Below, in pieces: positions 3,947 through 62,236 of a DNA stretch of 64,000 bases; the first letter of the stretch is position 1, and every line of letters begins with the position of its first letter. Both the position numbers and the translations under genes were made by a program. Source of the stretch: a virus; the IMG/VR virus record IMGVR_UViG_3300028030_000009, positions 13,082 through 77,081 of that record, one strand, 5' to 3'. Below the pieces are notes generated by a model, which did no database searches, was not told the DNA's origin, and worked only from the letters and a program-made list of their open reading frames with translations.

Positions 3947-4587
3947 CATTCTCAGAGTTGAAGAGGAAAGCATATAATGAGGGCATGACTCTTGTTCCGT
4001 TGTATATACTTGTTGAAGATTGGGGCGGGAGGCTATTCGGGAAAGAGCGGCTGTACAGAAAGAAGGATTTGATTGAAGGACCAATCCGTGTTCTGTCTTC
4101 CGATGAGATACGGTACAACTTTGCTTTCCCGAACCCATTGATTGAGCCAGCTACAGTTAAGTACTCACCTACTATTCTCAAAAGACAGATTCTTACATCA
4201 CGCTGCATCATCTTTCCAGGAAGAAAGACGTTCAATGGTGTTGCTTGGTATGCGCAGACTGACAGGAAGATTACAGTTCCACCATTCCACTCTTTTGTTG
4301 TTGACCCGAAAGGAGTTGAGCGCTCTGTGAGACTAATGCTTTGGTTTAACAGGAGAGATGTCATTGATGCAATCAATACAGAAATGCCGAAGAATGGAAT
4401 GACAATATCTTTTATGAGAGAGCTGCCTGTGCCAGTAAATGAAACACCGAACGATGTGGTCGAAGAGTTTGTGGATTTAAACAACAAGAGGATGCAGCTT
4501 CTCTCTGGTGTTGAGATGACATCGTCTAACATAAGAAAGCTTATTGAAAGATACGACAGGGCTGGGGAGGGGAATGCCCCAGCCTGA
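3943..4587 (+). CDS. Putative solitary half type I R-M specificity subunit (HsdS-like: one TRD plus helical region)
   Basis: Spacing of VPLYILVE / GPIRVLSSDEI / QILTSRCIIFPGRKT / VPPFHSFVV / LWFN / ISFMRELPVPV plus a C-terminal amphipathic helix resembles an HsdS half; ATGA-coupled to the upstream gene. Confidence 0.5.
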   Translation: MTFSELKRKAYNEGMTLVPLYILVEDWGGRLFGKERLYRKKDLIEGPIRVLSSDEIRYNFAFPNPLIEPATVKYSPTILKRQILTSRCIIFPGRKTFNGVAWYAQTDRKITVPPFHSFVVDPKGVERSVRLMLWFNRRDVIDAINTEMPKNGMTISFMRELPVPVNETPNDVVEEFVDLNNKRMQLLSGVEMTSSNIRKLIERYDRAGEGNAPA

Positions 4588-8218: not shown

Positions 8219-8309
8219 CTTAATCCCCTTATATTTTGTTTTCGTTTTTTATATAAGCGCATTTATGCGCACCTTTTCCTGTACCTCGAACAATAATTGT
8301 TAAGTCAGC

Positions 8310-9355
8310 TCATTTTCTCACCTCCTTGTGTTCTTTGTATTCAATTATCTTAGTGGTCATGAAGCCACGTCCATTCTTAACCCAGTTGTGGGCCTGTTTT
8401 CCGCTCCACGCCCAGAAGTCAGCCCACTCTTCATCACGAACGCCAAGAGACATATATAGCCTCTTGACGCCACCGGATATCTCTCCTTCTGGGCTTACTC
8501 CTTTGGGAATTGAGTGTAATACCCCTCGATGTCCTCCTTGATTACACTTTCTTCATCCTCTAGGTATGAATCTGGTTCAACATCAAAGCTGATTTTCATG
8601 TGCTCAATGAACTCTTCAAAATCTTCTTCGTTCAAGCCAAGCGAGACAAGCCTATTTTTTACCTGTGTCATCTTGTCACCAACATCGTCCTTTTGCAAGG
8701 CAGTATTCTCGCTGCTCTTGCTCTGAGACAAATCTTCGGTTACGTCGAAAGGGGGCTCTTCGCCGACCTCCTCATCAGTAGAAACATCTTCTTTTTCGCT
8801 CATTCCAACAGCATTCGCAACGCACGAACCAGCGTCGATGACATCTTCTTGTTCATTATGCTCCTCCTGATTTGCCATTGGCTTCTCTGGCTTAGTCAAG
8901 TGTTCCTCCTCACAAGAACTACTTTCCGACTGAGTGTCAACCTCTTTGTCTTCTTTTTTTTCGTTGGCGGCTTCGCTCTTGTTCTTTCGCTTTCTTCGAA
9001 CAGGCTTTTTGCCTTCGGCAACAATAATCTCTTTTGCATCGTCAAGTGTCATTGGAACATACTCGCTAATAGTTCCGTTCTTGATTGCTTCCTCGGCTTC
9101 AGCCTTATCGACAACGACTGGGTCTCCAAAAGCTTTGGCCAGCACAAACTTGACTTCCCCTGAAATAAGCTTGTCGTACCATTTTGGAAGGCTTTTGCAT
9201 ACCCATCCTTCTTCCATCAGGTCTTTCATTTCCATAGGCTTTTTTGACTTCTTGTTTACGACGGCACCGTTAAGTAGTACGAACTCTGATTTTCCGTGAA
9301 TAAGAATATCGCATTCTCCAGCAATAAGTTTTTCTACAGCGCTAAGCTTTGTCAT
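8310..9355 (-). CDS. Hypothetical protein, 286 aa (8495-9355), with a predicted -1 frameshift extension to 348 aa (ends 8310)
   Basis: Start MTKLSAV; C CCA AAG at 8501-8507 before TAA; the -1 frame is open for 63 codons and repeats the C-terminal domain. Confidence 0.75.
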
Positions 9356-13042: not shown

Positions 13043-13518
13043 GCTTCTTCGTCAGTTATGTTCTTAAACTTTGCAGCACAATCAGTGCATAGCACCTCGC
13101 CCTTCAGTCCAGAATCTTCGATTATTTTCTCACGACCCGCTGAAATATCCGATGTTTTTACAAACGCTGATGTAATCTTTCTGCATAGGCTACATTGTGC
13201 CTCATTTGTGTTGTCATCAGCTGGATTGACAACCGGATATGTGAGGCTTGGAACATCACTCCAGTCAACAAGAGCAAGGTCTGTATACCCAACAACATTT
13301 TCAAGATGTTTCAAAAGCGAGCCATGGCAATCAATTGCCGATTTTGTTGGGATTGTCTTGTCTCTGACAAACTCCCATGACGCAGCACTATGTTGCCCGA
13401 CAAACTCATATGCCGTGATAAAGCTAGAGCTTTCGTCATATTTGTCGTCAACAAAAATCGCCATAACATCACCCTTCAGCGGCTCCTCAATGTTTCTCAC
13501 AAATAGCACACGTGTCAT
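13024..13518 (-). CDS. Hypothetical protein with a C-terminal CxxC...CxxC zinc finger
   Basis: CSLC...CTDC; RBS AAGGAG. Confidence 0.75.
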   Translation of the reverse strand: MTRVLFVRNIEEPLKGDVMAIFVDDKYDESSSFITAYEFVGQHSAASWEFVRDKTIPTKSAIDCHGSLLKHLENVVGYTDLALVDWSDVPSLTYPVVNPADDNTNEAQCSLCRKITSAFVKTSDISAGREKIIEDSGLKGEVLCTDCAAKFKNITDEEACMEDL

Positions 13519-14366: not shown

Positions 14367-14622
14367 CGCCGCCTACCTTTACGCGCTCAAGCATGCCATC
14401 CGTTTCTTTGTTGACAAACTCAATCAGCTCCTCGCGAGATGCGAACAGAAGGCTCTCTTTTCTTTCGTAACCCATATCGTCGTCATCCACGACATAGTAA
14501 CTTATGCTTGGGCGACCATCCTTGATGTTTATGTTCACGGATTCCACTCTTACCACATCATACCCATAGGCGGTAATTGTGATAACAACATCGCCTGTGT
14601 TGTATTTTGTTTCTATTTTCAT
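14359..14622 (-). CDS. Hypothetical protein (IETKYNxGDxV family)
   Basis: Overlapping start/stop in operon. Confidence 0.75.
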   Translation of the reverse strand: MKIETKYNTGDVVITITAYGYDVVRVESVNINIKDGRPSISYYVVDDDDMGYERKESLLFASREELIEFVNKETDGMLERVKVGGDG

Positions 14623-15095
14623 TACTTTCCCCCTATTCTTGAAAGTCGAATGTCCTCGGCTACACGCCTCGTGACACCTAACACATAATTAAGGTCTGCC
14701 GGGTTGATTTGAATGTCTTCTATCATCCCTCGAAACTCATTAAAGTACCGATGCCGCCGACCGGAATCACTGCCAAGCCAATTCGCGAACATAATAGCAG
14801 AGTCCATAAGAAGATTTTCAAGCCCATGCTTATCTATGAATGCGTTGACAGAGCCTCCTCCATGATGAACCCAGTAATGTTCCTTGGAGCTAATGCAGCA
14901 CACGAAATAGTCATTATGCCTAATTCTGCTCTTTGGTAGCCAGTGATGAACCTCCTCTCCTCCGTTAAACGGCATCCACTCATTATGAAGCCAAGCAATG
15001 TAGTCTTTTATTATCAAGGTGCCCTTCTTCATCTCCTTGTTTTTTATTCTTTTTTCTTTTGCTCTTTCGAGCCTTAGCCTAATATCATTGTCCAT
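14622..15095 (-). CDS. Possible HNH-like (His-Me finger) protein
   Basis: EVHHW...NDYFVCC...EHYWVH pattern. Confidence 0.45.
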   Translation of the reverse strand: MDNDIRLRLERAKEKRIKNKEMKKGTLIIKDYIAWLHNEWMPFNGGEEVHHWLPKSRIRHNDYFVCCISSKEHYWVHHGGGSVNAFIDKHGLENLLMDSAIMFANWLGSDSGRRHRYFNEFRGMIEDIQINPADLNYVLGVTRRVAEDIRLSRIGGK

Positions 15096-50910: not shown

Positions 50911-52079
50911 TATTTCCCCTTTTTGTCCCAGTTGACAATTAGCGAGATGTTGGTTGTTGTCTCAACGGTCTTCCCTTCGATTATCCATTTCTTGTCGTCT
51001 GGAAGCTTTGAGTTAATCAACTTCGCTAACTCTTTTTTGTTTGGCATAACGTATGAAGGGTTTAGGCGTGCTAACTCAAGAAGCTCTTGGTCAGTATACT
51101 TGCTTGTGTCAACCTCTACCTTCTTATTGCCACCACGAAGCGTGACTGTAACGCCTTTCTTTTTAGCCTTCGATACGCCAGATTTTAGCATAAATTTTTT
51201 AACATCTTCTCCGAGTTTCTTGGCGTTCTTCTCAATATCCTTGAATTCTCGGTACTCTACGGCCTCTTCAGCAATGTCATCAGGAAGCTCTTTCACCTCC
51301 CCTTTCCCAAGGCAATTAAATGCCCACGGACACACTGAGCAGATGTTCCCGACATTGCGTGGGACGTCGTTCACGCTGAATTCCATCGAGTCTTTCTCTC
51401 CGTTCTGCCACTGAATGTAATCCTCGACGACATTCACGAGCGCAAGAGCATCCTCTTCTGCAAGCATAGCTTCTGCCTCGCTGTACTCGATATCGAAGAC
51501 TTTATTTCCTCCGTCGTTCAGCTCAAGCGCCAGCACTTTTGCGTCAATTTCTTCAGGCTGCACTCCCTTTTCTGCAGCGATATATTTAGTCTGTAGACAC
51601 ACCTGCCGCACCCAATAGTCATGTGGCACTTTTGGAATGGCGTTGGTTGTTTTTATCTCGATGAGAATAAACTTCTTGCCACTCTTTTTTGCGCTTTCAA
51701 TAAGCTCAACGGCTTCTGGAAGTGGGTCTTTTCTAGTAAACGGAGCATTAACTTCTATCAAAATATCTGGGTGAACCAATATGAAATTCATTATCGTTTC
51801 GCCTAAATATTCTCCCTGTCTTTCAAAGTTGATTCCAGCAATCTCAAATCGAGACTCAACAACACCCTCAGCCACATTGCCCTTGCGCATACGTATGAAA
51901 TTTTCCAATGTTGGCTCCGGCTCTCCATACAAGATGTTGTATGCAGTTTTTCTAGCGCAACCGGCTACATCAGATGCTCCGATGCGCGCTGTATGACCAT
52001 CAAAAGTCATACGGTCAGATTTTGTTTCTTTCTGCTCCTTCAAAAAAGCTGCTTGCATCAAATCTTGAATCCGACTCAT
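50910..52079 (-). CDS. PD-(D/E)XK exonuclease (Cas4/YqaJ-like recombination nuclease)
   Basis: GASDVAGCARK, HPD...EIKT, WVRQV, CSVCPWAFNC. Confidence 0.8.
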   Translation of the reverse strand: MSRIQDLMQAAFLKEQKETKSDRMTFDGHTARIGASDVAGCARKTAYNILYGEPEPTLENFIRMRKGNVAEGVVESRFEIAGINFERQGEYLGETIMNFILVHPDILIEVNAPFTRKDPLPEAVELIESAKKSGKKFILIEIKTTNAIPKVPHDYWVRQVCLQTKYIAAEKGVQPEEIDAKVLALELNDGGNKVFDIEYSEAEAMLAEEDALALVNVVEDYIQWQNGEKDSMEFSVNDVPRNVGNICSVCPWAFNCLGKGEVKELPDDIAEEAVEYREFKDIEKNAKKLGEDVKKFMLKSGVSKAKKKGVTVTLRGGNKKVEVDTSKYTDQELLELARLNPSYVMPNKKELAKLINSKLPDDKKWIIEGKTVETTTNISLIVNWDKKGK

Positions 52080-52094
52080 ACCTGTTCTCCTTTT

Positions 52095-52331
52095 TTACAA
52101 ATCATAGAAATATACAGAATCGATATCTGCTCCAAGATAGTCAATCTCGTGAGATTTTTCAATTCTATCAACAATGCCGTCACCCTCACTCATCCACGGA
52201 TTTCCATCGTATACGTCATGTATGTATTTTCCGATTGACGCATATCCAGCTCCATGTAAAGCATCTTTGTCATAGTAAATGTTGTATGAGTTGACCATGT
52301 TGTCTACTACAGAAAAAGATGACTTTTCCAT
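52095..52331 (-). CDS. Small hypothetical protein
   Basis: RBS AAGGAGG. Confidence 0.65.
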   Translation of the reverse strand: MEKSSFSVVDNMVNSYNIYYDKDALHGAGYASIGKYIHDVYDGNPWMSEGDGIVDRIEKSHEIDYLGADIDSVYFYDL

Positions 52332-52913
52332 CTATTCCTCCTTAATCCATTTTCCATCTTGGCACACGAAGCCCTTTCTCTTTAGCACATCTGCAGTTTT
52401 CTTTCCAACAGATTCTGCATCGACAATAAATGAGCCAGAATCAACCACATATTGCAGCTTTAGCCTCCTAAGCGTGTCCTCGGTGTCCTCCTCTTTTATT
52501 CTCATTTTTGATGGCTTCTTTGCTTTGGCAGCGGCAACTATTTTTTCACGGTGGCTAATCTCGTCCTTTGTTGCGATTGAGCCATTAAGACCGATTCCTA
52601 GCGCTCCGAGAGCACGTCCTCTTGCAGATGTCTCTGCAGTTTCAAAGTAGTTCCACTTGTTGAACTCTGATGCATCATCCCTCTCCTCTGCAAATCCATT
52701 GCACACGAAGTGTTCGGCACCATCGCTATCTCTTTTGAAAACCTGCGCCTCAAATACTACGCCTCTCACCACCCCGCCTGCCGTCTCAATAGAGAAATGG
52801 CTAGGGATGGTCTTCATGAAGTATCCCTGCGGCATCCATTTCTCGACAAATTCCTTTAGCCTCTCGGCAACAGTAACATATGACTCATTATAGTTATCGT
52901 ACTCCAAGCTCAT
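52332..52913 (-). CDS. Putative ssDNA-annealing/recombination protein
   Basis: YVTVAERL...ETAETSARGRALGALGIG motif; near the exonuclease. Confidence 0.65.
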   Translation of the reverse strand: MSLEYDNYNESYVTVAERLKEFVEKWMPQGYFMKTIPSHFSIETAGGVVRGVVFEAQVFKRDSDGAEHFVCNGFAEERDDASEFNKWNYFETAETSARGRALGALGIGLNGSIATKDEISHREKIVAAAKAKKPSKMRIKEEDTEDTLRRLKLQYVVDSGSFIVDAESVGKKTADVLKRKGFVCQDGKWIKEE

Positions 52914-53085
52914 TTGCACACTCCTCTACTCCTTTAAAATTTCTTATGTCTATGCCATCACAATTTGCATTCATCTTTGTTACATTTATATCAAAGCTCT
53001 TTACGGCTTCTAGCTGTGCGTTTGCTATCAGCGCAGCAACAACAATTGCAAATGTGATTAGAATCATAATCGCTTTGTCGCTCAC
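52894..53085 (-). CDS. Small membrane/secreted protein
   Basis: N-terminal hydrophobic segment; GTG start. Confidence 0.6.
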   Translation of the reverse strand: MSDKAIMILITFAIVVAALIANAQLEAVKSFDINVTKMNANCDGIDIRNFKGVEECANELGVR

Positions 53086-53569
53086 TTTTTCCTCCTCTTC
53101 CTGCTCTTCCTTTTTCCGAACAGATAAATGTCCGGGCTGATGTAATTCTCTATGGGGGCAGCCTCTAGCAACGCATCAGCACGAAGGTAGAGGCTCTCAG
53201 ATGGGCCTTTCTCATCAAGCTCACGATTCAGCGCAGCGAGCTCCATGAGAAATTTGTCAACAGAGAGTTTTTTTCTGCCCCCACTTTTCAGTTTTTTACT
53301 ACTGCAACATCGAACTTCTTTCTAGTTTTGAGTGTTTTTTTAACCACATCCTTGATTGATTGGTCAATCAGGTCGTTCTCATCGATATCAAGGAATTTCT
53401 CCTCTCCGTCAACTACTACAGCAGTTGTTCCATCAAAGCTGACGATGCTACTCGCCGGGATATCCCTGCCTATTTTATCGCTCAGTACCTCCTGCAATGA
53501 TGCAGATAAAAGGTCCGTCGGATTCACTTTTACCTTTTTCTCTTTTCCAAATACAACCTTCACTTTCAT
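53082..53569 (-). CDS. Hypothetical protein, 93 aa (53288-53569), with a predicted -1 frameshift extension to 162 aa (ends 53082)
   Basis: A AAA AAC at 53291-53297 immediately before TGA; the -1 frame is open to 53082 and overlaps the next GTG start. Confidence 0.7.
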
Positions 53570-53683
53570 TCACAACCTCCTTTATTTTCTTCTCAAGTTC
53601 GTGTTTTTCTGCCATCTTTTCCATATCAAAATATGTAACGACAAACACAGGTGACATCATTATAAAAGCAGCAATAAAATATC

Positions 53684-54115
53684 TCATTGTTTGCTCACTT
53701 TCGCAAGGGTCTCGAAGCCATGGCACCCCTTTACCTTCTTGATTTTGTGCGTTACAGGATTCCCTTTTGAATCCTTAACGATTTCACCATACCCATCAAA
53801 CATTACACTATCTTCATTTTGATGTTCGATATTTGTTGGGTATACAAAATCATCTCTATCAGAATACTCATGCGACCTTGCAATGTATTCCGCTACTTTT
53901 TTTGAAACGATATAGTAAACACCGTCTTTCTTTGGAGGAATATTTCCAACAAGTTCCTCCACAGGCTCATAAATGTACGAGTCCATCACCTTTTTTACTG
54001 GCCTGCTAGCACGCTGTAGACGCAACACGTCTTCATATCTAGCAGGACCTGCAACAAAACCACTATCTAGGTCTCTGACCTCGTGGCACGTCAAGTTTAC
54101 AAGCATTTCTGTCAT
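53684..54115 (-). CDS. Phage protein of the NLxxH family
   Basis: VNLTCHEV...PPKKDGVYYIVS...RDDFVYP. Confidence 0.75.
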   Translation of the reverse strand: MTEMLVNLTCHEVRDLDSGFVAGPARYEDVLRLQRASRPVKKVMDSYIYEPVEELVGNIPPKKDGVYYIVSKKVAEYIARSHEYSDRDDFVYPTNIEHQNEDSVMFDGYGEIVKDSKGNPVTHKIKKVKGCHGFETLAKVSKQ

Positions 54116-54632
54116 TTTTCATCTCCCTTAAAATTTGTTCAACGATTCGAACTTTTTTTGCTATAACCTTAACATAATTAGAATTAGGGCCTGCGGCAAA
54201 CCCTCCATTATATGAGGCAACCATGTGCTTCCATACATTTTTTTGTTTCAGCCTTACCCTCCAGTAGTTTTGCCAATACTTAAGCTCCATGAGGGCTGCT
54301 GACACCGAAAAATCGAGGTCACTAATTAGCCTCTCACAAAGCCTGCTCCTATTCCATGCGTTGTTCTTTAACGGTAGCCGCCTGATTAAGGATGATGGCA
54401 TTACGTGAAACACTCCACAGCTTGGGTCTGAAAGGTTAATTGGATGTGCGCCAAGTTGAGATTCCTGCCACGCTATAGCAGCAAGAGTAAGTCCAAGGTC
54501 AAACTTTTTGCCTGCTTCGTAGATATGTAGCATTGTGCTTTTTTGAGCATCTGTTAGTTTTTCGACACTGTAATCTGACGCGCTTAAAATAGAGGCAACG
54601 AGCGCAATTAGAACAAGGACTTTTTTAATCAT
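54063..54632 (-). CDS. SLT-domain lytic transglycosylase with a signal peptide
   Basis: AAIAWQES catalytic Glu, GVFHV, ASYNGG. Confidence 0.85.
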   Translation of the reverse strand: MIKKVLVLIALVASILSASDYSVEKLTDAQKSTMLHIYEAGKKFDLGLTLAAIAWQESQLGAHPINLSDPSCGVFHVMPSSLIRRLPLKNNAWNRSRLCERLISDLDFSVSAALMELKYWQNYWRVRLKQKNVWKHMVASYNGGFAAGPNSNYVKVIAKKVRIVEQILREMKNDRNACKLDVPRGQRPR

Positions 54633-54892
54633 GGCGTACACTCGTTTTTCGATGTATGCATAATAGCTTCAAAAATAGCTGCGCCAGACTCGTGAACTTG
54701 CTGTAGCCTCTCGTCAAGTTCTTTTGCATCAGCCTCAACAAGTAACTTTTGAGTGATTTCTATTGAATTTGCACAGTCGTTAAGGTTTTCGTACATGATT
54801 ATGTTGCCTGTGTCTCTGAATGATTTTGCAAGAGATTTTAGGTAACGAGCCTCATTTATCAAATCTTCGTATAGTCTGCCTTTTTCTGTCAT
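54629..54892 (-). CDS. Hypothetical protein
   Basis: ORF in operon. Confidence 0.7.
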   Translation of the reverse strand: MTEKGRLYEDLINEARYLKSLAKSFRDTGNIIMYENLNDCANSIEITQKLLVEADAKELDERLQQVHESGAAIFEAIMHTSKNECTP

Positions 54893-54896
54893 CTTC

Positions 54897-55400
54897 TCAT
54901 CCTTTTATGTATTTATTTTTTACATCATCAATGCTTTTTCCGGCAAAGCTCCATACACCGTTGTACCTAGCGAAAATTCCATCTGTTCCATAACAAATTA
55001 CAATCTTCTCAGTGAAATCAATTTTTTCGACTTCACAAATAGCCTCGATAGCGTTTGTTACAGAAGGGCATTCCTCGCAATCGTCCTTGTCGTAAATGAT
55101 AACAATATCATTATCGAGCCACTCAATGTTATAAGATGGCATCATTCTGTATGGGTATTGCATGAATAGGTTGCTTTTATAGTCTCTCTGTCCATGCTCA
55201 AAGTGTCTATGCAGACACACTGGTCCCACTCCTGCCTCAACAGAGACAGGGTCTGTTAATGGCTTACCGCAGTACGCACACTTAGCAGATGCTTTTTTGG
55301 TCCTCTTTTTCTTGTTGTTGCAACTTTCTGAAACATCATCAACTACATAATCATCCATTAGTGGCAGCAAGTTATCTTGTACCGACTTTTTATTCATCAA
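54897..55400 (-). CDS. DUF6011-like zinc-finger protein
   Basis: CAYCGKPLTDPVSVEAGVGPVC. Confidence 0.8.
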   Translation of the reverse strand: MMNKKSVQDNLLPLMDDYVVDDVSESCNNKKKRTKKASAKCAYCGKPLTDPVSVEAGVGPVCLHRHFEHGQRDYKSNLFMQYPYRMMPSYNIEWLDNDIVIIYDKDDCEECPSVTNAIEAICEVEKIDFTEKIVICYGTDGIFARYNGVWSFAGKSIDDVKNKYIKG

Positions 55401-55499
55401 ATCCCCCTTATTCTACGGGCAAGCTTTGCAACAGCATTTGCTGCTGGCCTATTTATTTTTGCCAAATTCATGGCAACTAAATATACTGTATCAGCTATT

Positions 55500-55970
55500 T
55501 TATTTTTCATTTTCAACCTCCATGCACTCTTGAAGGATTTTATCAACCCTTTCAAGGTCGTATTTCGCCTGCTCATACATTCTTTTAAAGTGGTCAACCT
55601 TTTGGTTGATGAGCTCCCTTTGTATTTTGTAAAAATGCATTCTTGCAAGCTCTTTGCTTAGGAAATATCTGCCCTCAACAAAGTCCCAAAGGCCATCTTC
55701 ATATTCACAGTCAGTCAATAAGTCTGAGTAGAACAGTTTTCCAAACTTGTCTGAAGACAAAAGAACCTCAACTTTTCTGCATGCCCCAACATCATGCTTT
55801 GACTTCGCCTGAAATGATACCCCATGCTCTGTCGTGATTACTGCTGTAACAGTAAACTCAATTATGTCGATTGAGCATGGGTGATATAGCGTATCACCGA
55901 CAGTAATAGACGAAATTTCTTCGCCACCGTTTATCCTCCCTAATGACTTGATATATGTTTCTGGGCTCAT
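55500..55970 (-). CDS. Hypothetical protein
   Basis: RBS AGGAGG. Confidence 0.75.
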   Translation of the reverse strand: MSPETYIKSLGRINGGEEISSITVGDTLYHPCSIDIIEFTVTAVITTEHGVSFQAKSKHDVGACRKVEVLLSSDKFGKLFYSDLLTDCEYEDGLWDFVEGRYFLSKELARMHFYKIQRELINQKVDHFKRMYEQAKYDLERVDKILQECMEVENEK

Positions 55971-55971
55971 T

Positions 55972-56337
55972 TCAGTCCTCCTTTTTCACACGAATGACAT
56001 CAGTTGTTTTTGCTCCATTTTCGAGCTCAACATACAGCTCTACATCCCATCCAGCAAGCCTCCTGCCAGCGTAGACAGGAGTAATTCTGGACACATACGC
56101 ACTTGAAATTCCGCACTCGTCACACTCAACGGTGATAGGAGCGGTCATGTTTACAAGTTCTGCATCACATTTTGCAAGGAGCTTTTCGCTCCAGATTGCA
56201 CTGAACTTTCCTGTGTCGATGAACATAATATGTACCTCCAGTCTTCTTACATAAGGCCATTTGTTCGGCGCCTCATCTACCCTAAAAAAACAACCTACAA
56301 CACCCTTCCCGTATCGCACAAAGCAAACAATCGACAA
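55972..56337 (-). CDS. Hypothetical protein
   Basis: ORF; start uncertain (possibly MFIDTG). Confidence 0.6.
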   Translation of the reverse strand: MSIVCFVRYGKGVVGCFFRVDEAPNKWPYVRRLEVHIMFIDTGKFSAIWSEKLLAKCDAELVNMTAPITVECDECGISSAYVSRITPVYAGRRLAGWDVELYVELENGAKTTDVIRVKKED

Positions 56338-56415
56338 AATCGACTGCTTGCCTGTGTAACACAGGAAGGGTGCAGTGAAACCAGTTATTTTGCGCCTGCT
56401 GGCCAGGCGTGAGCT

Positions 56416-56592
56416 CTATTCGGCAATGAGCCTTTTGAGCTCTTCTTTTGCGGCGGCTGTCTTCAAGTTGACTGTGTTGTTCTCCTTATCGACGAACAGC
56501 TTATGTCCACTGTCAGACATCATTCTAATCAAAACCCAGGCGCGGTTGCCACCGATTTCAGCTACCTTGGCGTTTTTATATATAAAGCTCAT
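56416..56592 (-). CDS. Small hypothetical protein (58 aa)
   Basis: Manual translation MSFIYKNAKVAEIGG...; strong RBS AAGGAGGAGG. Confidence 0.7.
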   Translation of the reverse strand: MSFIYKNAKVAEIGGNRAWVLIRMMSDSGHKLFVDKENNTVNLKTAAAKEELKRLIAE

Positions 56593-57169: not shown

Positions 57170-57286
57170 TTAGTCGAGCCCGAGGATGGCGCGGGAGGCC
57201 TCGATAGCCTCCTCTCTACTGCCGTGGACAAAGCCGTCAATGTCCGTCCAGAGGATTTTTGTTCCGACTGTAATCGCTTTTGCCAT
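57170..57286 (-). CDS. First gene of the leftward arm; 38-aa peptide
   Basis: TAAGGAGGTG RBS; MAKAITVGTKILWTDIDGFVHGSREEAIEASRAILGLD. Confidence 0.7.
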   Translation of the reverse strand: MAKAITVGTKILWTDIDGFVHGSREEAIEASRAILGLD

Positions 57287-57388
57287 GGTTCACCTCCTTA
57301 GGTGTAGCTCCACTGCTCTGGCGTACAGTGGAGAAGGGAAGCCGCTTTCGCGGCAACTCACCAAGGCTCTTCATTCAACGCCCTGGTG

Positions 57389-57523
57389 GAGGCTATTATT
57401 TAGCCTCATATATATATGCCACGTTTTTTGCGATTTTTATCACCGCAATATTACGCAGCATACATACATGAGGCTAATTTCAGCCTCGTATATATATGCC
57501 GCATTTTTGTTAATTTTTATCAC
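57389..57523 (-). promoter_or_regulatory. Tandem ~55-bp duplicated element with GAGGCT-N-AGCCTC palindromes (candidate early promoters/operators)
   Basis: GAGGCTATTATTTAGCCTCATATATATATGCC...ATTTTTATCAC and GAGGCTAATTTCAGCCTCGTATATATATGCC...ATTTTTATCAC. Confidence 0.6.
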
Positions 57524-57610
57524 TAAATTTAAACTGTTTTTGTTGATAGTAATTTCTGGTAAAATGATGCCGTAGTTGTATGCAGTCAAAATATACACCA
57601 GGAGCAAGCA

Positions 57611-59044: not shown

Positions 59045-59121
59045 GTGGGTATAGCGCAGTCTGGTAGCGCACCTGGTTTGGGACCAGGTGGTCGCAGGTT
59101 CGAATCCTGCTGCCCGCACCA
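59045..59121 (+). tRNA. tRNA-Pro(TGG)
   Basis: Cloverleaf, CCTGG-TTTGGGA-CCAGG, CCA end. Confidence 0.95.
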
Positions 59122-59142
59122 TTCTAACAAAAAAAACACGAA

Positions 59143-59230
59143 AGCAGGTTGGCTGAGTGGTCGAAAGCGGCGGTCTTGAAAACCGTTGAGGGTAACACCT
59201 CCGTGGGTTCGAATCCCACACCTGCTGCCA
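59143..59230 (+). tRNA. tRNA-Ser(TGA)
   Basis: Long variable arm, anticodon loop CTTGAAA, GCCA end. Confidence 0.95.
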
Positions 59231-59248
59231 TTATGGACATAATCAAAG

Positions 59249-59512
59249 ATGATTGACAAAAAAGAAGTCGGCGAACTGATAGCATCATCAATATATGACT
59301 CTGACGATATAGACACAGCTCTTTTTCAACTTGAGACATCAACACCAGAAGAAAGAAAAAGACTAATTCCTGTTGTTGTTGAATTGATTCTTGAAGAAGC
59401 TCTGTTTGGAATACTTTCTGGGATATCAACCAAAGTAACCGATGAAGAGTTTGAAGAAATAAGACAGATGGTGCTTAAGTCTGTCGAGGATTCAATCGGT
59501 AATTTTTCATAG
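59249..59512 (+). CDS. Acidic hypothetical protein between tRNAs
   Basis: ORF track. Confidence 0.65.
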   Translation: MIDKKEVGELIASSIYDSDDIDTALFQLETSTPEERKRLIPVVVELILEEALFGILSGISTKVTDEEFEEIRQMVLKSVEDSIGNFS

Positions 59513-59515
59513 AAT

Positions 59516-59600
59516 GCGGAAGTGGTGGAATTGGTAGACACGCCAGCCTTAGGAGCTGGTGCACTAGTGCGTGAGAGTTCGAGTCTCTCCTTCCGCACCA
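59516..59600 (+). tRNA. tRNA-Leu(TAG)
   Basis: CCAGC-CTTAGGA-GCTGG, variable arm, ACCA end. Confidence 0.95.
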
Positions 59601-59753
59601 TTCATTAAGCGAGAACAAATGGTTGAAACAATAATGGTTTCACTACTGTTTGTGTCATTCCTTGCCGGATACATTGTTGGATGCGCTTCATGCAACAACT
59701 CCTCAAAAGAAAAACACGACGGCAAATACTGCGACACAACACCATACTTTTAG

Positions 59754-59830
59754 GCAGCCGTAGTTCAGATGGTTAGAACGCCTGCCTGTCACGCAGGAGG
59801 CCGTGGGTTCGAGTCCCATCGGCTGCGCCA
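59754..59830 (+). tRNA. tRNA-Asp(GTC)
   Basis: CCTGC-CTGTCAC-GCAGG, GCCA end. Confidence 0.95.
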
Positions 59831-59983
59831 TATAAAAAAGATAGAAGGAAATACAGATGGAATTCAATACTATGCTTTTGATGGTTAACATTGCTGGACT
59901 CCTCCTATTCTACGACACAAATTCAGATAATTGCTAATTTTTTAAGTATCACGTAAAGTTCTGTTTGGTATAGTTCAAGTTAT

Positions 59984-60060
59984 GCGCCCGTAGCTCAGCA
60001 GGATAGAGCATTCGCCTTCTAAGCGAACGGTCCCAAGTTCGAATCTTGGCGGGCGTACCA
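59984..60060 (+). tRNA. tRNA-Arg(TCT)
   Basis: TTCGC-CTTCTAA-GCGAA, ACCA end. Confidence 0.95.
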
Positions 60061-60061
60061 T

Positions 60062-60138
60062 GCCGGTGTAGCTCAGTTGGCCAGAGCAGCTGATTTGTAA
60101 TCAGCAGGTCGTCAGTTCGAATCTGACCATCGGCTCCA
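60062..60138 (+). tRNA. tRNA-Thr(TGT)
   Basis: GCTGA-TTTGTAA-TCAGC, CCA end. Confidence 0.95.
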
Positions 60139-60356
60139 TCTCAAAAAAGTCGTACAATACGCCAAAACCCCTTGCAAAACAAAAAAATATTCGCTACAAT
60201 TCAAACTGTCAGAGATGACATCGCTTTATGTCTTCCTATCATTTTATACTGATAGGCCACATATTGCGAGGCTACGAGGGGGAGAGCCGTTCTGGAGATA
60301 AGCGCCCAGAATCCGCCATGCTCATGGAGGCCCGCCTCAACAGCCGAATAATAAGC

Positions 60357-60431
60357 TGGGGTGTCGCCAAGCGGTAAGGCCGCAGGTTTTGGTCCTGCTA
60401 TTCGGGGGTTCGAGTCCCTCCACCCCATCCA
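60357..60431 (+). tRNA. tRNA-Gln(TTG)
   Basis: U1-A72, GCAGG-TTTTGGT-CCTGC, CCA end. Confidence 0.93.
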
Positions 60432-60432
60432 T

Positions 60433-60508
60433 TCCGGTGTAGCTCAGCTGGTAGAGCGAGCGGCTGTTAACCGCTATGTCGCAGGTTCGAGTCCTGCCAC
60501 CGGAGCCA
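60433..60508 (+). tRNA. tRNA-Asn(GTT)
   Basis: AGCGG-CTGTTAA-CCGCT, GCCA end. Confidence 0.95.
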
Positions 60509-60533
60509 CAAATACTTCAAAAAAGGGGAAATC

Positions 60534-60728
60534 ATGAAAAAAAAGTTCAAATCTCTGTGGAAAATTGATATTAGCTATGATGACGATAGTGGAGATACGG
60601 CATCAGCAACATTTATGGTAGTGGCGAGAACAATCGATAAGGCAATCAGCATTGCTAGGAAGAATTTTGGAAATGTGGATGTGGAGATTGTTTCCGTAGA
60701 AAAAACAAACTGCAACCTTTTGTACTGA
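60534..60728 (+). CDS. Small protein (VVARTIDKAI, DpnD-like)
   Basis: RBS AAGGGG. Confidence 0.65.
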   Translation: MKKKFKSLWKIDISYDDDSGDTASATFMVVARTIDKAISIARKNFGNVDVEIVSVEKTNCNLLY

Positions 60729-60736
60729 GCATAGAC

Positions 60737-60997
60737 ATGGAAAATTGCGAAATTGAGCAAGCAATTTTTAGGGAGATAGAAAAAGAGGTTGTCCGCATAA
60801 TCAGAGAGAAGCATATGGACTACATTGAGAAGGTAGTTGACGATAACATTGAGTATATCGTTGATGAGTTCTTTAGGAGTGCAAGAGAATACGGTCATGA
60901 GCAGATAGACGAGGTAATCGTTGACGCCATGAGAGAAAAAGTCAGCCAATATATGAAAGATGTTGAGCTGACAAAAAAATCAAGCAAGGTGAAGTGA
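60737..60997 (+). CDS. Hypothetical helical protein
   Basis: ORF track. Confidence 0.65.
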   Translation: MENCEIEQAIFREIEKEVVRIIREKHMDYIEKVVDDNIEYIVDEFFRSAREYGHEQIDEVIVDAMREKVSQYMKDVELTKKSSKVK

Positions 60998-61269
60998 TGA
61001 GATATATCGTTGCTGAAAAAATCCCAACAGAGGTTAAGATGCTCAGCGTAACAAAAAAGGAGCTTGAGGATATGCGAAACAAGTTTAGGTGCATATCCGT
61101 TTCCTTGCAAGACGAAAAGTGGCTGGCATCAGAAGAAGACGATGCACACGTTGGCTATCTTGCCGGAGAAATAGGAAGAATGCACCAAGACCAATATGCT
61201 GATGTTTGGTTTGTAAACAAAAACTATTTCAACAAAAACTATAGAATTGTAAAGGAGGAAGAAAAATGA
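60994..61269 (+). CDS. Hypothetical protein (DVWFVNKNYFNKNY)
   Basis: Coupled to the DUF2829 gene. Confidence 0.7.
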   Translation: MMRYIVAEKIPTEVKMLSVTKKELEDMRNKFRCISVSLQDEKWLASEEDDAHVGYLAGEIGRMHQDQYADVWFVNKNYFNKNYRIVKEEEK

Positions 61270-61556
61270 GTGCAGGAACTTTTGTAGGAGAAGGGTCTTT
61301 CGGATGGGCTCTCAAAATGCTTGAAAACGGCGAGAAGGTAGCAAGAGATGGGTGGAACGGGAAAGATATGTTTCTGTTTCTTGTTCCAGGTAGCAAATTT
61401 AAGGTAAACCGTCCACCGCTTCTAGGAATCTATCCAGAAGGAACGGAGATTGAGTATCATGCTCATATCGACATGAAGACAGCGCAAGGATATGTTGTTC
61501 CGTGGCTAGCGTCACAAGCAGATATTCTAGCAAAAGACTGGAAGGTGGTTAAGTAA
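61266..61556 (+). CDS. DUF2829 / Thoeris anti-defence Tad2-like protein
   Basis: FGWALKMLENGEKVARDGWNGKDMFLFLV...PWLASQADILAKDW. Confidence 0.85.
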   Translation: MSAGTFVGEGSFGWALKMLENGEKVARDGWNGKDMFLFLVPGSKFKVNRPPLLGIYPEGTEIEYHAHIDMKTAQGYVVPWLASQADILAKDWKVVK

Positions 61557-61777
61557 TGCACGGCATGTTCATGTTTGACATGAGCAGGTGTCATGGCATT
61601 GGGTGCGACAAATCAACAGAATGTGCACGCTATCTTGCTGTTGAGTTTGACAAAAAACACAAAGATGAGCTTCCAAATTATATGTCATACATCCAAGAAG
61701 CAAGCTGCATTCGAAACGGGTTCTCAGGTTTTGTAAAAGCAACAAAGCAAGAAAAAAAACTTGCTATGCAAGGATAA
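61556..61777 (+). CDS. Small Cys-rich protein, paralog of 29602-29793
   Basis: CHGIGCDKSTECARY...CIRNG. Confidence 0.7.
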   Translation: MHGMFMFDMSRCHGIGCDKSTECARYLAVEFDKKHKDELPNYMSYIQEASCIRNGFSGFVKATKQEKKLAMQG

Positions 61778-61815
61778 AAAAGCTTTGTATAAGGTACAAT
61801 TTTGTACCATTCTTT

Positions 61816-61883
61816 CTGCCAGTCGTCTAGCGGCCAAGGACACCTCAAACGAGGAAACGCATGTTCAAATCATGCCTGGCAAA
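61816..61883 (+). ncRNA. tRNA-Glu-like element with a truncated anticodon arm
   Basis: TGCCAG/CTGGCA acceptor, GTCTAGCGGCCAAGGAC D-arm, CCTC-AAAC-GAGG, GCATG-TTCAAAT-CATGC T-arm; no CCA. Confidence 0.65.
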
Positions 61884-61957
61884 ATCAGGGAAAGATTAGG
61901 CAGCAGGTGTTTCTAGAGCACCTATACAGCTGAACAGGTTCAACCCCTGCCTGATTA
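61883..61957 (+). ncRNA. Degenerate tRNA-like element with a CUA anticodon-type loop
   Basis: AATCAGG/CCTGATT stem; AGGTGT-TTCTAGA-GCACCT; CAGG-TTCAACC-CCTG; poor D-arm. Confidence 0.5.
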
Positions 61958-62077
61958 AAACTCCTGCAGAAGTGCAGGTCGCTCAAGGCAAGTCTAATAG
62001 GCGCTTGAGCCTTGAGAGTAGCACCGCTGCCTCTGTCTACCGAGCAATGAGCTCAGGTAGTCACGCACGGAATATTC

Positions 62078-62155
62078 GGGCACTTAGCTCAGTTGGTAGA
62101 GCTCCCCGCTCATAACGGGGCGGTCGGTTGGGTTCGAGTCCCCCAGTGCCCACCA
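62078..62155 (+). tRNA. tRNA-CAT (Ile2 or elongator Met); 2-nt bulge in the T-stem
   Basis: CCCCG-CTCATAA-CGGGG, ACCA end. Confidence 0.88.
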
Positions 62156-62160
62156 TATAT

Positions 62161-62236
62161 GGGGTTGTAGCTCAGTTGGGAGAGCGCTTGCCTTGCACGC
62201 ACGAGGTCACGGGTTCGAGCCCCGTCAACTCCACCA
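62161..62236 (+). tRNA. tRNA-Ala(TGC)
   Basis: G3:U70, loop CTTGCAC, ACCA end; one mismatch in the anticodon stem. Confidence 0.93.

Follow-up and report, generated by a model that had tools for sequence, protein, structure and literature searches.

A probable programmed -1 ribosomal frameshift at an A_AAA_AAC site in a phage of hydrothermal-vent Campylobacterota

A gene on the minus strand of the window, by which we mean the whole 64,000-nucleotide stretch of phage DNA analysed here (IMG/VR record IMGVR_UViG_3300028030_000009, positions 13,082 to 77,081 of a 77,081-nt viral contig that probably stems from a hydrothermal-vent metagenome), is very probably subject to programmed -1 ribosomal frameshifting, which would give products of 93 and 162 amino acids from one start codon. 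The case is built on the recoding signals, on a predicted RNA structure, on conservation of the -1 protein in a distant relative (contig L001) in which it has no start codon of its own, and on the absence of an indel; it is from this sequence evidence that we infer the slip itself. As in canonical -1 cassettes, the slippery heptamer lies in phase, the start-less -1 peptide is conserved, and the arrangement is kept in L001. The efficiency of the slip, a stimulatory role of the downstream junction and of the stop codon, and any function of the two products are likewise points that we infer. The reading frames and signals at the locus are as follows.

53288..53569, minus strand: 0-frame gene, 93 aa plus TGA stop, with a strong Shine-Dalgarno sequence (SD) AAGGAGG 7 nt 5′ of its ATG
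53291..53297, minus strand: slippery heptamer A_AAA_AAC, in the X_XXY_YYZ phase of the 93-aa gene and abutting its stop codon
53288..53290, minus strand: 0-frame stop TGA, directly 3′ of the heptamer and forming the first half of the spacer TGAAAA (53290-53285)
53082..53297, minus strand: -1 frame after the putative slip, adding 69 residues after Asn93 (LKSGGRKKLSVDKFLMELAAL...GKRKSRKRRKK) to give 162 aa
53244..53246, minus strand: ATG at which gene callers start a 54-aa ORF (P0003), the sole canonical start in the -1 frame
52894..53085, minus strand: next gene, a 63-aa hydrophobic protein with a GTG start, whose SD GAGGAGG is contained in the sequence for the basic tail of the -1 product

Putative slip site and predicted downstream RNA structure

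In the 0 frame, the 93-aa ORF ends in GTA AAA AAC TGA on the minus strand. All the elements that an earlier note on this DNA had read there, namely AAAAAAC, the adjoining TGA, the spacer TGAAAA and a 10-bp stem, were recovered at the positions it gave, the spacer between heptamer and stem being 6 nt long. The -1 frame has 79 open codons, from 53321 to 53082, and, as that note had also described, it ends in GKRKSRKRRKK and runs into the start of the next gene, its stop TGA (53084-53082) overlapping the GTG within the sequence GTGA. Read from the heptamer, the -1 peptide is KKLKSGGRKKLSVDKFLMELAALNRELDEKGPSESLYLRADALLEAAPIENYISPDIYLFGKRKSRKRRKK. Part of the basic tail is accounted for by the purine-rich SD that serves the next gene, the product of which is probably a membrane protein.

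Within the window AAAAAAC occurs 39 times, and seven times in phase among the 50 confident genes; in-phase copies are not avoided in the genes of this phage. Generally, many genes here have an in-phase heptamer close to their end with a long -1 frame beyond it, a consequence of the frequent 4-nt overlaps between adjoining genes. A heptamer followed by an open frame is by itself insufficient evidence for frameshifting. According to PMC4066793, A_AAA_AAC slips with low efficiency in E. coli, is the proven -1 site of IS1 and is found in other IS elements. No GGAGG-like sequence that could act as an upstream SD-like stimulator was seen in the 20 nt before the heptamer. A second A_AAA_AAC at 53267-53273 (minus strand) lies in the 0-frame phase beyond the TGA; for ribosomes already in the -1 frame, the A7 run at 53267-53273 is an in-phase A_AAA_AAA, located in the unpaired strand between helices P1 and P2 (see below). 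Bypassing of the T4 gene-60 type from the AAC codon was considered and rejected: the sole downstream AAC landing site opens into a short frame.

Ten tRNA genes are encoded on the plus strand at 59045-62236 (Pro, Ser, Leu, Asp, Arg, Thr, Gln, Asn, Met and Ala; no tRNA-Lys), and the tRNA-Asn(GTT) at 60433-60508 decodes the A-site AAC of the slip site.

Two other places in the window resemble slip sites. What is presumably the other frameshift candidate lies at 8300-8507 on the minus strand, with an in-phase C_CCA_AAG (8507-8501), GAGTAA and a stem GCCCAGAAG/CUUCUGGGC (fold z -3.1). Its -1 ORF of 63 codons has an ATG inside (8446) with the SD AAGAGG 6 nt upstream, and no homologue of the 301-aa gene was found in the L001 genome. 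The recurrent recoding strategy that the earlier note suggested for this phage is therefore not supported. A G_GGA_AAG that immediately precedes the TAA of a 157-aa ORF (14622-14631, minus strand) was considered as a slip site of the lambda tail-chaperone type and rejected, this sequence being the SD for the gene that follows, which starts at an ATG overlapping the stop codon (TAATG).

Downstream of the heptamer, the RNA is predicted to fold into the following helices.

53275..53284, minus strand: P1 5′ arm, GTGGGGGCAG (= GUGGGGGCAG), encoding S-G-G-R in the -1 frame
53152..53161, minus strand: P1 3′ arm, CTGCCCCCAT (= CUGCCCCCAU), encoding A-A-P-I
53194..53267, minus strand: P2 arm, with an 8-pair lower helix (53267-53258 / 53203-53194) and a 16-pair upper hairpin (53252-53236 / 53224-53208)
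53162..53193, minus strand: P3 hairpin of 10 pairs (53193-53181 / 53174-53162)

The 113 nt between the arms of the 10-bp P1, which the earlier note had drawn as one giant loop, instead form two further helices, and the whole is a three-way junction of 133 nt. The minimum free energy fold includes the long-range stem P1, and the P1 pairs reach probabilities of 0.92-1.0 when folded in a 401-nt context. From the heptamer to the P1 3′ arm (53297-53152) the folding energy is -61.2 kcal/mol (z -6.72), a value reached by none of the dinucleotide shuffles. When this strand of the whole 77-kb genome was scanned, the fold window 53300-53141 ranked 15th of 3847, which makes it the fourth most structured locus. 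Those that rank above it, at 57261-57600 and 56221-56460 (both minus-strand folds) and 6800-6980 bases before the window start, have residual z values of -8.7, -6.6 and -5.8 and probably hold long inverted repeats where gene orientation switches.

The 5′ arm of P1 uses the rarest Gly codon of the phage (GGG, 16%) and the 3′ arm its rarest Ala (GCC, 12%) and Pro (CCC, 5%) codons, which fits selection for pairing on top of the coding sequence. Enrichment of GC at third positions of the structured part was dropped as an argument, as the value of 0.49 is not unusual against 0.44 +/- 0.08. A scan against Rfam gave no match save a chance snoRNA hit (E 1.1), and the promoter and terminator scan returned none inside the gap.

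Coding character of the -1 frame and its counterpart in L001

An indel or assembly error, which the earlier note had set against its own proposal, was not found at the locus. Logan contigs of the source run match it exactly. A run from another study (X2) contains an 80-kb contig that is 3.2% divergent over 51000-55500 and has no indel in 53082-53569; given this independent assembly, a homopolymer miscount is very unlikely. The slip site of L001 has no homopolymer run of more than 3 bases. The sole two gaps against X2 within 51000-55500 lie at 53068 and 53074, in the next gene. Within codons 4-6 of the 63-aa gene (GTG 53085), X2 has lost one nucleotide and gained another 6 nt away; the two changes make up a compensated frameshift, with two or three residues altered. 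Among the matches listed, X2 and the window appear identical over ~700 nt (52113-52808) while the flanks differ by 2-4%; recent recombination may have produced this tract.

Both its lack of stops and its codon usage indicate that the -1 frame is coding. It was free of stops in 2.1% of dinucleotide shuffles (P = 0.021), and its codon-usage score of +13.1 was reached by 1.2% of the stop-free shuffles (true genes score 21.9 +/- 6.6).

The strongest comparison comes from L001 (JALVAK010000064.1), a phage-like contig binned in a Nautiliaceae MAG that was found solely by a GTDB genome scan with alignment A2. L001 and the window share about 10 genes at 27-49% amino acid identity. Its homologue of the 93-aa protein, 99 aa long and 42% identical, is preceded by RecT and NYN genes and ends in CCG GGA AAG TAA, such that an in-phase G_GGA_AAG (4291-4297) directly abuts the TAA stop. 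The -1 frame of L001 is open for 78 codons, and no ATG, GTG or TTG occurs in it until TTG 4375, 28 codons past the heptamer. Its peptide, GKVKFSSIEEFLHKVALLNSDLRKYGPSLMLYKQALALYHSKPIEWEPDLEIYLKGGANEKNKR, aligns with the -1 peptide of the window over 58 gapless residues at 40% identity (E 2e-11). The long products are predicted to have very similar lengths, 162 aa in the window and 161 aa in L001. The earlier proposal of a programmed -1 frameshift with 93-aa and 162-aa products is thus backed by an in-phase G_GGA_AAG and a start-less, conserved -1 peptide in a second phage.

On its own, the part of the L001 peptide that lies upstream of any start codon shares 45% identity with the window (E 9e-7). 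The first, second and third codon positions have DNA identities of 0.48/0.64/0.26, and stops abound in the two remaining frames; both observations point to constraint on the protein rather than on the RNA. At the DNA level the comparison comprises two sequences, the window and L001, to which the protein C-termini of other homologues can be added.

The downstream structure is a point on which the two phages differ. A stable structure 5-9 nt 3′ of the heptamer, as is canonical for -1 sites, is present in the window and absent from L001, where the sequence after the heptamer has z -0.2 over 182 nt and, at a distance of 7 nt, no more than a weak hairpin of 6 bp (z -0.9). Because the long-range junction is not conserved in L001, it receives no covariation support from this comparison. 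G_GGA_AAG is a much stronger heptamer than A_AAA_AAC. An attractive reading of these two sequences is a trade-off, in which a strong G_GGA_AAG may act without a structure in L001, whereas the weak A_AAA_AAC of the window may be helped by the junction. L001 also contains an in-phase A_AAA_AAC at 4261-4267, 30 nt upstream of its G_GGA_AAG and at a position not homologous to the site of the window. Slippage at this upstream site would likewise lead into the open -1 frame, and the product would lack the domain's last beta-strand; this heptamer is probably coincidental.

Among the alternatives to frameshifting, the one that survives best, though we regard it as improbable, is a separate 54-aa gene that starts at ATG 53246, by weak initiation or by re-initiation 42 nt after the UGA at 53290-53288, with the RNA structure serving as a coupling device that keeps the ATG masked before translation of the upstream gene. 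The ATG is present, and gene callers do start P0003 from it; in L001 the -1 frame has its TTG, from which a 35-aa protein (P0024) is called. Moreover, the ATG (53246-53244) is sequestered in the 16-pair upper hairpin of P2, as is seen with coupled starts. An independent start at this position, which the earlier note had named as an outcome that would count against recoding, nevertheless fits the data poorly. The ATG has no SD, its duplex with the anti-SD amounting to +0.7 kcal/mol, whereas phage genes have strong ones, with a median of -7 and with -8 to -12 for the neighbours. Homology with L001 begins at SVDKFL / SIEEFL, six residues before the Met of the window, and covers 22 of the 28 L001 codons that lie upstream of any start codon. 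The Met itself corresponds to His in L001, and the candidate starts of the two phages are not at homologous positions. Finally, a start at ATG 53246 would truncate the first predicted helix of the extension (residues 13-30). We consider this ATG to be probably an internal Met codon of the frameshift product, although some 54-aa protein may also be made from it by independent initiation or re-initiation.

Transcriptional slippage, in which RNA polymerase would add one A in the A6 run and thereby bring the two ORFs in frame, appears very improbable. Examples of such slippage exist among bacteria and IS elements (PMC5009743), the site is indeed a run of six A, and an mRNA with seven A would encode the same fusion bar one junction residue. 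Six A are, however, fewer than the runs usually needed, and L001 keeps the layout with G_GGA_AAG, without a long homopolymer. A stop codon next to the heptamer and a strong stem at a spacing of 6 nt also fit a ribosomal mechanism.

Least probable of all is a broken fusion gene of ~160 aa (a 1-nt deletion) or a non-coding structured RNA, such as a processing or stability element, with a chance open frame: the structure is very strong (z -6.7), the family members are all <= 113 aa, and Rfam and terminator scans speak neither for nor against an RNA element, but two lineages with saturated third positions (0.26) have kept the -1 frame open and conserved as protein after an in-phase slip site, the independent assembly has no indel, the codon score and open frame are jointly improbable for non-coding sequence, and a decaying frame is disfavoured because a dead frame would have gained stops.

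Protein family and gene context

An exhaustive HMMER search of 1.84 billion representatives returned 18 homologues of the 93-aa protein, 81-113 aa in length, and no family member of ~160 aa with the two parts fused in frame. Ten of the 18 homologues end in GK and five in KK, the preceding residues differing in number and kind. GK and KK are the dipeptides specified by G_GGA_AAG and A_AAA_AAG, respectively, when these stand directly before a stop codon. At the level of protein C-termini, the 15 GK or KK ends suggest a slip site that may always abut the stop codon in this family. One homologue, P0027 (in the cluster of P0016), continues for seven residues past the usual GK end (…VGKMKMKNYR), while its mates in the 90%-identity cluster end at GK.

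Relatives outside this set proved scarce. By blastn and tblastn, no close relatives of the two ORFs were found in GenBank phages. Scans of IMG/VR with the 93-aa, 54-aa, 195-aa, 143-aa and 389-aa proteins, with P0012 and P0022, and with alignment A2 gave no relative, nor did scans of JGI metagenomes or scans of GTDB genomes with the single proteins P0012, P0010, P0011 and P0020. Word-based protein searches returned nothing beyond the proteins of the window itself and the 35-aa piece of L001. No further homologue turned up in samples drawn from the class, order and family to which the L001 genome belongs; matches of E ~1e-4 inside 729-aa proteins in these samples were judged spurious.

The 93-aa gene is flanked in the window by genes for a RecE-like exonuclease and a transglycosylase-like protein and by small ORFs, and it lies close to recombination genes in both phages (RecE-like in the window, RecT in L001). 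Neither ORF has a match in Pfam or PHROGs, including chaperone families. The AF2 model of the 93-aa protein (pLDDT 85) shows a duplicated module of a beta-hairpin, two helices and a strand. Foldseek found no match for it in the PDB at E <= 0.001, and ESM Atlas scores of <= 0.82 are at chance level. For the -1 extension, AF2 gives a helix at residues 13-30 (pLDDT about >= 90, in 10-residue blocks) and another at 34-45, followed by a low-confidence basic tail. In the model, the extension of the 162-aa form would be a helical hairpin with a basic tail.

Proposed mechanism, related systems and meaning

We propose that ribosomes translating the 93-aa gene arrive at GTA AAA AAC with UGA as the next codon, at which point P1, the G5:C5-rich base of the junction 6 nt downstream, would resist unwinding at the mRNA entrance. 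A fraction of the ribosomes would then slip by -1, tRNA-Lys and tRNA-Asn re-pairing on AAA AAA; alternatively, the P-site tRNA might shift with the A site occupied by the stop codon. Slipped ribosomes would read CUG AAA AGU and so on for 69 more codons in all, up to the UGA that shares bases with the next gene's GUG. The outcome would be two proteins with a common N-terminal domain, of which the 93-aa form would probably be the majority. A bolder combined scheme, to which we assign little likelihood, holds that the whole ~100-aa family is recoded with the slip site always at the stop codon, that heptamer strength is traded for structure, and that the phage tRNA-Asn(GUU) times the ratio of short to long product.

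In E. coli dnaX (tau/gamma), frameshifting takes place at A_AAA_AAG, with an upstream SD and a stem-loop 6 nt downstream. Its heptamer is of the same class as that of the window, and the stable stem has the same spacing of 6 nt. In dnaX, however, the shift yields the shorter product and an upstream SD helps, whereas the shift proposed here would yield the longer product and has no upstream SD. The lambda tail assembly chaperone gpG/gpGT is made by a -1 frameshift at G_GGA_AAG, a heptamer identical to that of L001. As proposed here, one start gives rise to a short form and a longer one, with the slip near the 3′ end. Unlike the lambda gene, the gene of the window is not beside a tape measure gene but in an early/recombination region. 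With RecE-like neighbours and no chaperone match in Pfam or PHROGs, it does not have the marks of a tail assembly chaperone of the G/GT type. Tail chaperones account for 2397 of the 2476 annotated frameshifts in SEA-PHAGES genomes (PMC10885494).

Insertion sequences offer further parallels in signal. In IS1, the insA / B′-insB shift is a -1 shift at A_AAA_AAC (A6C), as reported by Escoubas et al. (1991) and relayed in PMC4066793. To the extent that this source describes it, IS1 is like the window in its identical heptamer, in its bacterial setting, in a short upstream ORF that is fused near its end to a start-less downstream ORF, and in low efficiency; it is there without an established stimulatory structure, whereas the window has a stable three-way junction 6 nt downstream and a stop codon that abuts the heptamer. 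The gene of the window encodes a phage protein and not, as in IS1, a transposase.

In IS911 orfA-orfB, a three-way junction stimulates -1 frameshifting at A_AAA_AAG (PMC5009743). IS911 and the window have in common an A-rich heptamer followed by a multi-branched putative stimulator rather than a simple hairpin or pseudoknot. They differ in that IS911 has AAG as the last codon and an upstream SD-like stimulator, while the window has no such upstream element and a larger junction (133 nt). Given that the upstream stimulator is lacking and the gene is not a transposase, the likeness to the IS911/IS3-type signal is one of junction shape alone.

Collectively, the locus represents a well-supported frameshift in a non-structural gene that lies beside recombination genes and outside the tail module, in a gene family that was previously unrecognised. 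Current annotation splits members of this family into one gene and a spurious or truncated small ORF, for which the re-annotation rule would be to join the two ORFs at the heptamer. The window and L001 form a natural pair for the compensation between heptamer strength and downstream structure in bacteria, and they provide an example from the little-studied phages of hydrothermal-vent Campylobacterota.
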